A stretch of 63,261 bases of DNA, filler included, from Rhabdomonas costata (taxonomy: Eukaryota): NCBI GenBank assembly GCA_019059605.1. It is 34 parts of 34 records of this genome, joined end to end, with 100 filler letters (N's around TTAATTAATTAA, not from the genome) between each part and the next. Parts side by side here need not be neighbours in the genome. Positions count along the whole stretch, not along the records: positions 16,779 to 18,542 come from JAHMHO010009393.1; 33 more parts are not named here. One strand, given 5' to 3'. Shown here one piece after another: positions 15,849-19,274 of this stretch. The position numbers and the translations under genes are program-made. Below the pieces are notes generated by a model. The model was given only the letters and a program-made list of their open reading frames with translations, made no database searches and was not told where the DNA came from. Numbering within the stretch: position 1 is the stretch's first letter; every line of letters starts with the position of its first letter.

Positions 15849-16807
15849 GTGCGGGAATTGTTGGGGAGGGGCATCCTGCACAGTCGCGTTTTCACATTGA
15901 CCGATATGCGAAGCGAGGAGCGGGTGGATGAATAAAACAGCGGCTTCGTTACACAAGTGCTGGTGGACTTGGCGTTGGCAACTCGGTGAGTGGCTGCCTT
16001 TAGCACAGTTCTGTCTGTCACGTGTGCATTTTCTCTCTTCCAATTCAGCTGTCAATCGCGCGTCCAAGCGTGTCCAAGCGTGGATGGGTTCCCTCTCTCT
16101 GAGTAAGTAGGTACCTTAAGACTGCTGTGAAGTCCTCGTTGGACACCTCCTGGCCTTTGTGTTTACTGGTGTATTTGGGTGTACTTGTACAGTTTCCATT
16201 CACTCTCTCCCTGTTTTCGACAGCCCTGGGGATCCGCTGAGCCCCTGCGGAGGTACACGCGTCGTTGTGTGGGGTTTGATGGTCGTTGAGGGAAGGGCTG
16301 CTGGTGAATGAGAGTACAATCTGCCGGAGACTTGTATACAGAAGCTGCCCGTAATTTCTACCTAGTTGTCACTTTGACAGGTCAACAACAGAACACTGCA
16401 GAGCATGCTTGGTTGTTCAGGTTCAGTCTGCCGGCAGGAAAAGGTCGTTCCTGCTGAATGCCCTGTTTTTCGCACTTCATTTCCCTTCATTTCCCAAATT
16501 CTCACTTTTGGTATGGCGTGAATGGCATACTAACAAATGTCTGATTCAAACCTCTCACAGTCAGCCAGCCTAGTCATGCAGCTCACTCCCCGTCCAGGGA
16601 ACTGGATGCTGTGATGTGTGTGAGACGGCCGTGGAATGCCCTCAAAGCAATAAAAACAACCCCCAAACACACCCACACNNNNNNNNNNNNNNNNNNNNNN
16701 NNNNNNNNNNNNNNNNNNNNNNTTAATTAATTAANNNNNNNNNNNNNNNNNNNNNNNNNNNNNNNNNNNNNNNNNNNNGTGGTGTGTGTGTGGGGGGGGT
16801 GTCCCAG

Positions 16808-17603
16808 CCCTTTGGAGCGCGGTGAGGCTGGTGATCCGGTACCCGTTCCCGTGCTTCGACTCCGACGGGCTGGTCCGCCAGCATCCCCACCTCCTGAAGG
16901 AGATCGCCCATCGCAACTGTGTGGCCTTCCTGGGCGCCGGGTTCTGCGCCCCCGCCAAGGGGCCCTCCTGGGCTGAGCTCCTGGACGCCGCTGCGGACGC
17001 CATCTGGTGATCTGCTTGGGCACTTATTCTGTTTTTCTTTTGCTCGCAACCAACAAACCTGCTCTTGTTTGGTTCCTGTTCGGAGTAGCCTCTGAATTGG
17101 GCGAAAGGTTGCTGTCTCGGTCAGCTTCTCTCCCCGCAGAAAGGTGGCTGTCTCGGTCGGCTTCTCTCCCCGCTGTCTTTGAGATGGGCTATTTTTGGTG
17201 CTTTTTAATATCGGTATAATAACGGTCGATTTTGCGGGCCTGAATGGCTGAATGGCACATATATTTGTGTACTCCGGTGCTAGAACTTAGAGCTTATTGC
17301 TTGGGTTTTGTTGCGTTGTGTTTTCATTGCGCGGCATGCCTCAGCTGGCAATTTCAATGGAAACATGTTATAAGAATATTAGATGGTCCGATTAGGACAT
17401 CGCTCGCAACTCGGTGTGCAGCTCAGCCTGTTTTCTTTGCTCCATTCACAAAGCTCCATTTGCTACCTAGTTGGGCATGCCCACTAAGCTCGAAACACTC
17501 GTGACACAGGCCTACTTCCACCAGTCGGACCAAGGACACGGTCAAGGACCTTCTGAAGAAGAGTAACCATGCGGATCTTGAGCTGGCCGCTCAACTGATG
17601 CAG
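16808..17603 (+). CDS. SIR2-like (SIR2_2) domain protein, two exons (16808-17006, 17510-17603)
   Basis: LLKEIAHRNCVAFLGAGFCAPAKGPSWAELL = hhFhGAGhS...G.P.W..L start of SIR2_2 domains; spliced continuation W|PTSTSRTKDTVKDLLKKSNHADLELAAQLMQ; GT-AG intron, phase 2. Confidence 0.8.
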
Positions 17604-18226
17604 GTGAGCGGATGCAGTCGAAGCGCCGCATGTCCCTTTACCACATCGCCGCAGCATATGCACTGTACTGTGCGGGTGGAACGGGATTCACCTCCCAACT
17701 TTCGTTGCCATTGGGAATGTCGAGGTGGAGCCGAACATCGCCTTACTCCTGCCCTTTCTTTCGCGGAAAACTGACTGGAGCTCAAGCTCAATACAGTACC
17801 CGTTCTAAGTGGAACAGGTGCGGCTGTGGGCCCTGGTATGTACCGCTCAAGGGTATGGGGCACTTTTTGATACCCTCCCCTGGTGCCCCAGACCGCCTCC
17901 TCCTCCTTCTCCCTCTCTACCTTTTCACTCTCCTTTTCCTTCTTAGCCGGCTCCGCTTCCTCGGGAGTAACCACCTGCACGCTGGGGACCCCATGGGCCG
18001 CGCAACCCTCCGCTCCCTGATCAGGCGGCTCCGGGTCGTCTCTGGAGAGGAAGGTCTCCTTGGCGACCTGCTCTTCCATGGTGAGCTGGCGGATCTTTTC
18101 GGCCTCTTCGTTGAGGATCTCCTCGCGGAGCATGAGGTACTCGGAGCCCCGAAGGATCTTCTTATTCAGCTCGTCGCAAATGATGTGCTCCAGGCCCCTC
18201 CCTCCCTCCTTGAGCTGCCGCTTGTC
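17591..18226 (-). CDS. Exon of an uncharacterised Glu/Lys-rich protein, antisense to the SIR2-like gene
   Basis: Acceptor CTTTGTAG then a 212-codon open frame DKRQLKEGGRGLEHIICDELNKKILRGSEYLMLREEILNEEAEKIRQL...; 3' extent uncertain. Confidence 0.6.
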   Translation of the reverse strand, partial: DKRQLKEGGRGLEHIICDELNKKILRGSEYLMLREEILNEEAEKIRQLTMEEQVAKETFLSRDDPEPPDQGAEGCAAHGVPSVQVVTPEEAEPAKKEKESEKVEREKEEEAVWGTRGGYQKVPHTLERYIPGPTAAPVPLRTGTVLSLSSSQFSAKERAGVRRCSAPPRHSQWQRKLGGESRSTRTVQCICCGDVVKGHAALRLHPLTCIS

Positions 18227-18542
18227 CTACAAAGCGTTCGATCAGAACAAGAGAAACCTCACCAGCTTTGAAGGGGAACAGAAATGAGTTTACCGCATAG
18301 CAATAAGCTCATCCCTGGTATGAAACCAAGCAATGCCAAGCAGAGGTCCTTCTCTGCAGAAAGAATGCAAACATGCTTGGAAAACCGCATGGATTGCAAA
18401 GGAGCACGAGAGGAAGCGGTCTGGGGCACCAGGGGAGGGTATCAAAAAGTGCCCCATACCCTTGAGCGGTACATACCAGGGCCCACACCCGCACCTGTTC
18501 CACTTAGAACGGGTACTGTATTGAGCTTGAGCTCCAGTCAGT
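17770..18542. repeat. 133-bp inverted repeat (17770-17902 / 18410-18542)
   Basis: Reverse-complement match with two mismatches; right arm runs to the contig end. Confidence 0.92.
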
Positions 18543-19115
18543 NNNNNNNNNNNNNNNNNNNNNNNNNNNNNNNNNNNNNNNNNNNNTTAATTAATTAANN
18601 NNNNNNNNNNNNNNNNNNNNNNNNNNNNNNNNNNNNNNNNNNTGTTTTTGTTTCCCGTTTTCATTTGTGATTTATGATTGTTTCCTCCTTTTCCCCCAGT
18701 GCAAATTTCTTCATTCGTCCTTTCTCTTTCCTCCTTTCCCTCACTGCTCAACCGAAACAGCGGGAAACTGTAACCAGCAGTCAGAACCGTCTTCACTTGG
18801 GGGACGGAAATCTTTCGCCTGATCGGTAAAATCGAAAGTCATACTTTTTTCGCTCCTTGATCGAATCTGTTATTATGCGGACACAAAAAGTACTGAAAGT
18901 ATTCATGAAGGAACAGCGCATATAGTGAATCAACGGATAACCGCTGAAGCTGATCCATTCCGTGATGATCCAACAAATTCTATCTCTGTCTGCCCATAGG
19001 TGGCCCTTCTTGAGCCATTTGGATAATCCGAAGAAGAAAAAGCGGAGGTGATCCATCATTAATCCAATCCAATGTTACCTCCACGGTGTTTGTGTATGCG
19101 TATTTGCGGCGGCAG

Positions 19116-19274
19116 ATGAAAGCCTATGGTATTGAGCTGGGTTCGGAGATGTGCCGCAAGATAATCGCCAAGGGGCACACCCACCTCCACTTCTACTGCC
19201 TTAACTCCGACGTCAGCACCTTTGCGATCATGAACAACCTGGGGCTGCGAACGGCAGACCCCACTGTCACCTGA
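19116..19274 (+). CDS. MTHFR: Methylenetetrahydrofolate reductase, final exon
   Basis: MKAYGIELGSEMCRKIIAKGHTHLHFYCLN...IMNNLGL matches the GIE...EMC..L......LHFYTLN end of the catalytic barrel; follows a CAG acceptor. Confidence 0.88.
   Translation: MKAYGIELGSEMCRKIIAKGHTHLHFYCLNSDVSTFAIMNNLGLRTADPTVT

Follow-up and report, generated by a model that had tools for sequence, protein, structure and literature searches.

A spliced gene fragment in Rhabdomonas costata

The stretch of Rhabdomonas costata DNA considered here (63,261 bases; hereafter the window) holds, on a single contig of 1764 bases at 16779-18542, a fragment of a gene for an immune-type SIR2 protein. Its two internal exons, with 293 bases of visible coding sequence, are predicted from translation to cover the N-terminal ~95 residues of a SIR2_2 domain: strand beta1 and helix alpha1 with the NAD-binding loop between them, as well as a portion of the helical insertion. 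The gene almost certainly belongs to a family that pairs a WWE domain with a directly following SIR2_2 ("SIRim") domain. The gene is cut at both ends of the contig. The window itself consists of 34 unrelated contigs of ~1.76 kb each, joined by linkers (66 runs of exactly 44 N flanking 33 copies of TTAATTAATTAA, in the arrangement N44-TTAATTAATTAA-N44); because the contigs are merely concatenated, adjacency within the window carries no genomic context. The features of the contig are the following:

16779..16807, plus strand: last part of the upstream intron, GT/G-rich and of low complexity, with the acceptor AG at 16806-16807
16808..17006, plus strand: exon A (tblastn E 6.9e-21 to the relative P0002)
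Parts of exon A, in order: LWSAVRLVIRYPFPCFDSDGLVRQ, WWE tail and linker; HPHLLKEIAHRN, pre-beta1 helix; CVAFLGAGFCAPAKGP, beta1 and the glycine-rich NAD-binding loop; SWAELLDAAADAI, helix alpha1
16921..16983, plus strand: motif VAFLGAGFCAPAKGPSWAELL, a SIR2_2-type GxG loop and P.W..LL helix, from translation
17007..17509, plus strand: intron 1, 503 nucleotides (nt), GT..AG, with an in-frame TGA at 17008-17010
17510..17603, plus strand: exon B (tblastn E 0.009 to the relative P0003 and 0.041 to P0002)
17604..18542, plus strand: start of intron 2, donor GTGAGC, extending to the contig end
17770..17902, no strand assigned: left arm of an inverted repeat, 133 nt, in intron 2
18410..18542, no strand assigned: right arm of the inverted repeat, ending exactly at the contig end

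What supports the two exons? When exon A (67 residues) was compared by phmmer with 1.84 billion representative proteins, 29 were matched at E<=1e-3 and four at E<=1e-10, the best of them being P0002 (1858 residues; E 1.2e-19, 71% identity over its residues 1363-1421). Two of the 29, P0008 and P0026, were discarded as spurious: they are repetitive proteins that were matched in 8 and 13 stretches, and their Pfam matches are odd. When longer proteins were sought with exon A in a word-indexed search, none of the 224 candidates received a score. A family hidden Markov model (HMM), built from 12 relatives and containing no window sequence, was run on the 1962 six-frame, stop-to-stop open reading frames (ORFs) of the window. 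Two ORFs stood out: that of exon A, with E 6e-25 over HMM positions 64-125, and that of exon B, with E 7.6e-4 over positions 139-165. The next-best ORF reached only E 2.9. The two matched segments lie on one strand and are collinear, with 503 nt between them, and exon B aligns to the family block ..V..L....ELAAQLLED. Together, the HMM and tblastn statistics, the collinearity, and the alignment to this block indicate that the two exons are real and do have to be spliced together.

The plus-strand frame from 16780 reads ..PALWSAVRLVIRYPFPCFDSDGLVRQHPHLLKEIAHRNCVAFLGAGFCAPAKGPSWAELLDAAADAIW (ending ...HPHLLKEIAHRNCVAFLGAGFCAPAKGPSWAELLDAAADAIW) and then meets the TGA. Homology to the relatives begins at 16810 by tblastn, and the acceptor just upstream makes 16808 a sensible exon start. 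At the other end of exon A, the donor GT lies at 17007-17008, and inspection by eye showed no further GT from the last homologous codon up to the stop. Exon B is preceded by an acceptor AG at 17508-17509; because an alternative in-frame AG follows 15 nt downstream, at 17523-17524, the precise 3' splice site is only inferred. Joined in this way, the exons stay in frame ((200+94) mod 3 = 0, counted from the codon start at 16807), and the codon split across the join, TG|G, encodes Trp. From 17511 the frame reads PTSTSRTKDTVKDLLKKSNHADLELAAQLMQ, which ends at 17603 and is followed by GTGAGC; the exon corresponds to two helices of the SIR2 helical insertion (..KDTVKDLLKKSNHADLELAAQLMQ) and ends in phase 0 (CAG|GTGAGC). 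Reading through this second donor adds 56 residues dissimilar to the relatives before a stop (ORF 17505..17774). The GC content of 0.70 in exon A (0.91 at third codon positions, GC3), 0.475 in intron 1, and 0.55 in exon B fits a division into exons and introns. The exons expected to encode the WWE domain are missing because the contig begins at 16779, and neither tblastn nor the family HMM found a further SIR2 exon in the remaining 939 bases of the contig or in the other 33 contigs.

The first-pass annotation of this DNA had quoted peptides from two exons joined by GT-AG and had concluded that the gene is eukaryotic. The peptides are present in the translation as quoted, and splicing is needed because the TGA directly follows the donor. 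The closest relatives also come from eukaryotic transcriptome collections: the source label is eukprot for P0002, P0011, P0017, and P0090 and mmetsp for some weaker relatives, and from these labels the relatives are taken to be eukaryotic transcripts. Might the fragment instead come from a contaminating bacterium, the gap between its halves being a matter of chance? Stand-alone bacterial relatives do exist, as SIR2_2 genes 73-75% identical to the relative P0028 occur in two Nannocystaceae (Myxococcota) genomes (L001, 5001-6317; L002, 5001-6302). However, a stop codon in frame right after the donor, 503 nt of AT-richer non-coding DNA between collinear homologous segments, and nearest relatives (71% identity) that are eukaryotic transcripts with WWE and ankyrin domains effectively refute this explanation.

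Intron 2 holds an inverted repeat whose arms are 98% complementary and 507 nt apart according to a repeat search (~143 nt at 96.5% by blastn), with no other copy within the window. Its right arm stops at the contig end, which is probably why the assembly stops there; the repeat may be a foldback or TIR-type (terminal inverted repeat) element, or the cause of the assembly break. An open frame of 211 residues on the minus strand (17591-18226; Lys/Glu-rich, GC3 0.66) runs antisense to intron 2 and enters the left repeat arm; its sole Pfam match is DUF6550 at E 0.25. Intron 1 holds a tandem direct repeat of 35/36 nt (17103-17173, 94% identical) and, when compared with the window by blastn, matches only itself.

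A repeat that breaks the assembly in the very next intron, in a fragmented and repeat-rich genome, also bears on the idea that the exons are remnants of a decayed paralogue. Such a pseudogene would be in keeping with the mere 293 coding bases that are visible and with the many diverged copies of the family, since the 29 representative clusters matched at E<=1e-3 include many fragments of 59-265 residues. By contrast, exon A and exon B are both open, every position that the family conserves in the GAG loop and in ELAAQL is intact, the splice signals are canonical, and the GC3 of exon A stands far above the GC content of the intron. Decay is thus considered improbable.

Relatives, domain arrangement, and predicted fold

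Which type of SIR2 protein does the fragment represent? The region at 16921-16983 displays the N-terminal features of SIR2_2 (beta1, a F.GAG[FIL][SC] loop, and a P.W..LL helix), and VAFLGAGFCAPAKGPSWAELL aligns with F[LIV]GAGF[SC].PA..P.W..LL in every relative of the alignment shown. The secondary structure of exon A was assigned by homology to residues 142-200 of the relative P0017, which have a predicted local distance difference test score (pLDDT) >90 in its AlphaFold2 (AF2) model. Among PADLOC profiles, exon A matches ThsA1 (E 2.9e-4), LmuA (E 8.6e-4), and a second ThsA1 model (E 2.4e-3), in all cases at profile positions 8-51. All five of its matches in the PDB (E 0.06-1.9) are SIR2 NADases, namely two KomBC chains, SeThsA, and two Bacillus ThsA chains; by their PDB titles, 9v12/9v0g are KomBC and 7uxt is SeThsA.

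The relatives point in the same direction. Pfam SIR2_2 was found in eight of the 13 relatives scanned (E 1e-21 to 1.7e-12, 48-78 bits against a cut-off of 24.5), downstream of the stretch that resembles exon A. SIR2_2 is missing from the other five: P0019 stops 30 residues into the match, two are short fragments, and two are the spurious repeat proteins. The remaining 16 matches of exon A are fragments of 59-265 residues with no Pfam match. With PADLOC, LmuA and ThsA1 rank first for all eight relatives (E 1e-15 to 1e-23), well above Dsr1 and the generic SIR2 models; the Dsr1 models reach only 1e-4 to 1e-5. A phmmer comparison of P0017 with the PDB gave ThsA at E 3.3e-7.

The first-pass annotation had set the gene apart from deacetylase sirtuins, and the PADLOC and PDB matches of exon A, together with SIR2_2 in eight of 13 relatives, bear this out. 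Classical sirtuins (Pfam SIR2, PF02146) carry the motif GAGIS..GIPDFR. A sirtuin of this kind would share the general GAG Rossmann-type loop, and the depositors of 9v12/9v0g named the protein "NAD-dependent protein deacetylase"; yet the same entries are titled KomBC NADase filaments, the motif here reads GAGFCAPAKGPSW rather than GAGIS..GIPDFR, PF02146 is absent from the exons and from the 30 relatives scanned, and no deacetylase sirtuin appears among the titles of the 50 structural matches listed for P0017 (see below). This alternative is likewise effectively refuted.

What precedes the SIR2_2 domain? The Pfam WWE domain (PF02825) scores above its cut-off in P0002, P0007, P0011, P0017, P0019, and P0090. 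In the first five of these, the best WWE stretch ends no more than four residues from the start of the match to exon A; P0090 is not among the phmmer matches of exon A and was outside this comparison. The WWE portion of the window is only the tail LWSAVRLVIR, which aligns where the WWE match ends in P0002, P0019, P0007, P0011, and P0017, and the window shares with P0019 the pattern ..SAVRLV.R.P.PCFD.D..VR.HPHLL.EI. The "extra sequence" that had been reported N-terminal to the SIR2 domain is thus present and, judged from the WWE boundaries of the relatives, probably represents the tail of a WWE domain followed by a linker. Compared with RNF146 WWE domains in the PDB, P0017 gave weak matches (E 0.2-0.8).

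The nearest relatives are giant proteins of 1535 (truncated), 1858, 1870, 2322, and 2831 residues. They have in common a large conserved N-terminal region, ankyrin repeats, the WWE and SIR2_2 domains, and a C-terminal extension. Features from a protein language model relate their N-terminal block (P0002 residues 180-600; also in P0003, P0011, P0019, and P0090) to unnamed clusters from Nucleocytoviricota and Rotifera at 0.95, and to clusters of MavL and MavL-like ADP-ribosylhydrolases at 0.92 and 0.86, which is a lead only. The MavL-like lead was unsupported by Pfam (E<=1), by NCBIfam, and by a PF16062 search of one bacterial and 14 control genomes. All 60 matches listed for a five-giant profile in the PDB were ankyrin-repeat or other designed repeat proteins and are uninformative on the N-terminal block.

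The relatives extend beyond the end of the R. costata contig and allow the catalytic motifs to be read. A TTN-type motif, sought with a pattern allowing N, D, or S at the Asn site, was found in 25 of 48 relatives, and all 25 have Asn at this site. The residue two past the Asn is more variable: Asp in 15, Ser in four (P0002, P0003, P0011, and P0090), Asn in four, and Thr in two. The His motif reads IQ[IL]HG or LKLHG in all eight of the full-length relatives aligned, and also in P0090. In the residue after the GAGF-type loop, Ser is found in 28 and Cys in six of the 38 relatives with a GAG-type motif, the six including the close relatives P0002, P0003, and P0004. The earlier remark that the usual Ser is replaced by Cys in the R. 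costata gene is therefore correct, but the Cys is a subfamily trait and not a one-off. Between TTNY and HG, a CxC...CxxC cluster occurs in P0002, P0003, P0011, P0090, P0015, and P0010; it may be a metal site, placed elsewhere than the zinc module of sirtuins.

The predicted fold agrees with these assignments. The relative P0017 (521 residues) was modelled with AF2 from a 22-sequence alignment, and the model was compared with known structures by Foldseek and VIA-align. Its mean pLDDT is 75.5 and its predicted template modelling score (pTM) 0.73, with pLDDT >90 across residues 150-300, a range that takes in the counterpart of the window exons. In VIA-align, the model matches KomC with Z 23.2 (root-mean-square deviation (rmsd) 2.8, 254 of 264 residues aligned), BcThsA with Z 22.7 (rmsd 4.1, 289 aligned), DSR2 with Z 21.6 (rmsd 3.0, 257 aligned), and human FAM118B with Z 20.0 (rmsd 3.5, 275 aligned). 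Lower scores were obtained for SPARSA (Z 18.1), Avs5/AVAST5 SIR2 (Z 16-18), and SIR2-HerA (Z 12-15). Among the 50 VIA-align matches listed, 49 have SIR2-type titles and one (8yhx_Q) is a trimeric HerA. As modelled, P0017 is thus predicted to share the fold of KomC, ThsA, DSR2, and FAM118B. Some 40 short, high-identity, unrelated matches (3-12% coverage) concerned the C-terminal end of P0017 alone and were set aside. Its last residues resemble translated sequencing adapter, which would explain these matches.

Elsewhere in the window, a plus-strand open frame at 19014-19274, in the adjoining contig, ends ..HLHFYCLNSDVSTFAIMNNLGLRTADPTVT and by eye resembles the C-terminus of methylenetetrahydrofolate reductase. 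No Rfam family was found in the window, and a spliced-leader-type motif had no match in it; neither of these null results bears on Euglenozoa.

Proposed function of the WWE-SIR2 gene

In sirtuin-fold enzymes, the glycine-rich loop helps to hold NAD, and WWE domains bind ligands that contain ADP-ribose, such as iso-ADP-ribose. How might the two domains work together? The reading that we somewhat favour is that the contig carries two internal exons of a spliced eukaryotic WWE-SIR2 gene whose product would be an NAD-consuming effector under the control of its WWE domain. The full protein would be large, like P0002 and P0019 (1.5-2.8k residues, with ankyrin repeats). Its SIR2 domain would consume NAD+ as a glycohydrolase or possibly as an ADP-ribosyl transferase, and the adjoining WWE domain would act as a sensor of a ligand containing ADP-ribose. 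The logic would be as in ThsA, where a SLOG or Macro sensor is combined with a SIR2 effector, and would serve stress or anti-parasite signalling. In ThsA, the substitutions N112A and H152A abolish NADase activity, and both residues are reported to be required for phage defence (PMC7272460).

Several observations weigh against this proposal. The first is the motif TTNYS, without the Asp of xxNxD, in the giants P0002, P0003, P0011, and P0090, which are all of the giants in which the motif is seen; judged from sequence, it could mean that the activity is altered or lost. The survey that defined eukaryotic SIRims required this Asp for inclusion (10.1101/2024.09.18.613514). Furthermore, the catalytic half (the TTN Asn and the HG His), the WWE domain, and the ends of the gene all lie off the contig and are assumed from relatives that are at most 71-75% identical to the fragment, these being P0002 and P0019. 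The WWE part of the P0017 model is of low confidence (pLDDT 43-83). Nothing ties the WWE-SIR2 family to infection, and no recognisable defence neighbourhood surrounds the bacterial relatives in the two Nannocystaceae genomes; in L002, the neighbours are an M19 dipeptidase, an extensin-like protein, and a TonB-dependent receptor. Finally, Pfam and NCBIfam gave no match for either exon even at E<=10. This last result is uninformative, as PF13289 begins at the LTTN motif: its profile position 2 corresponds to residue 139 of P0021, whereas the GAG loop of P0021 is at residue 46. A profile that starts ~95 residues past the GAG loop cannot match the fragment.

Given TTNYS, the missing link to infection, and the catalytic exons lying off the contig, NAD consumption by the SIR2 domain, which is proposed by analogy, is judged only marginally more probable than its absence. 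A role in defence can be put forward only tentatively, and we regard it as doubtful.

The principal rival keeps the same fold and family and differs in the activity assigned to it. The SIR2 domain would be an ADP-ribosyl transferase or a non-catalytic module that binds NAD or ADP-ribose, acting within a giant scaffold in ordinary poly(ADP-ribose) (PAR) signalling, as in DNA damage or chromatin. WWE domains are known from PAR-dependent ubiquitylation and from PARPs, and the fusion of SIR2 to WWE, as seen in the Pfam matches of the relatives, suits such a role, as do the ankyrin repeats and the TTNYS in place of TTNYD in the four giants with the motif. A MavL-like N-terminal block, were the lead to hold, would fit it as well, and some sirtuins ADP-ribosylate proteins, according to the FAM118 study (PMC12700824). 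On the other hand, the Asn and His are retained wherever the motif can be read, the closest structures and profiles are all of NADase-type SIR2 proteins, and the MavL-like lead finds no backing in Pfam or NCBIfam. This rival is therefore held to be unlikely, though it is the most serious of those considered, and a WWE-controlled NADase remains the preferred reading.

A broader and more speculative version of that reading can be formulated. The gene might be a member of a diversified family of giant single-chain proteins in microbial eukaryotes that link an ADP-ribose signal to the destruction of NAD. In such proteins, the WWE domain, perhaps together with a MavL-like macro-type domain, would sense an alarm molecule derived from ADP-ribose, or poly(ADP-ribose), and pass it to a ThsA/KomC-like NADase. 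They would be a fused, eukaryotic counterpart of Thoeris in which WWE takes the place of SLOG or Macro, with a modified active-site motif (TTNYS) and the cysteine cluster as features not described for SIRims. We consider this version rather unlikely as a whole.

Known systems and the meaning of the family

How does the gene compare with the known SIR2 systems? ThsA (PDB 6lhx, 8bto/8btp, 7uxt, 8wc0) has the same SIR2_2-type fold, with an N-terminal GAG loop followed by the W..LL helix, and exon A aligns to ThsA residues 15-50 and to positions 13-49 of the PADLOC ThsA1 profile. The relatives keep the Asn and His equivalent to N112 and H152, and both proteins fuse a ligand-sensor domain to a SIR2 effector. 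They differ in that the sensor of the relatives is an N-terminal WWE domain, whereas that of ThsA is a C-terminal SLOG or Macro domain; Pfam reported neither SLOG nor Macro in the relatives scanned. Unlike ThsA, the gene described here is eukaryotic, spliced, and monocistronic, with no known ThsB/TIR partner, and its relatives are often 1.8-2.8k residues long, with ankyrin repeats and, in the giants, TTNYS. Sequence identity to ThsA is only ~15-18%. On this comparison, the gene does not belong to ThsA, but it may work in a ThsA-like manner.

KomC (of KomBC) and DSR2 (PDB 9xvc, 8zsf, 9v0g, 8ygc, 8wyc) are among the best structural matches, with KomC first; KomC-type chains are the best PDB sequence matches of exon A (E 0.06). 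Both systems differ from the present gene in being bacterial, KomC having KomB as its partner and DSR2 sensing the tail tube through its C-terminal domain. With RNF146-type WWE domains, the likeness lies in the Pfam WWE match directly before SIR2 in the relatives; the window itself holds only the last strand (..AVRLVIR).

The eukaryotic counterparts are the SIRims and FAM118A/B (PDB 9r3e, 9r0p), which are SIR2_2 proteins for which an NADase activity and an immune role have been proposed (10.1101/2024.09.18.613514, PMC12700824). In the preprint, SIRims are described from 189 species, or 19.2% of the eukaryotic genomes queried, in five clades and with fusions to NACHT or NB-ARC, TPR, and Macro domains (10.1101/2024.09.18.613514). 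The first-pass annotation had seen the strongest lead to an undescribed system in this gene; as eukaryotic SIRims have already been published, that claim does not stand, and the gene is a variant and not a new system. The text of the preprint contains neither "WWE" nor words starting with "Euglen", "Discoba", or "Excavat", although its Table S4 may list the family (10.1101/2024.09.18.613514). FAM118 is described as a vertebrate-specific SIR2_2 clade whose members are 41% or more identical to human FAM118, and "WWE" and words starting with "Euglen" are absent from the text of that paper (PMC12700824). The P0017 model has a structural identity of 14-15% to FAM118B, and the FAM118B cluster of the atlas scored 0.83, short of the value taken as meaningful. 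The literature searched, in part as lists of titles, yielded no account of a fusion of WWE with SIR2_2, and this domain arrangement appears to be undescribed there.

On its own, the window is of modest value: a single family member is represented in it by 95 residues, on a contig of 1.76 kb. The interest lies in the family. Immune-type SIR2 NADases connect bacterial anti-phage defence with animal innate immunity through FAM118B (SIRanc), and a protist family in which SIR2 stands directly behind an ADP-ribose reader of the WWE type suggests a sensor-effector pair that can be tested. Given TTNYS in its giant members, the family would show how far the xxNxD motif can be dispensed with. More generally, the rule that a sensor of a nucleotide signal is fused to an NADase would, through this family, come to include a new sensor domain as well as giant proteins of eukaryotes.

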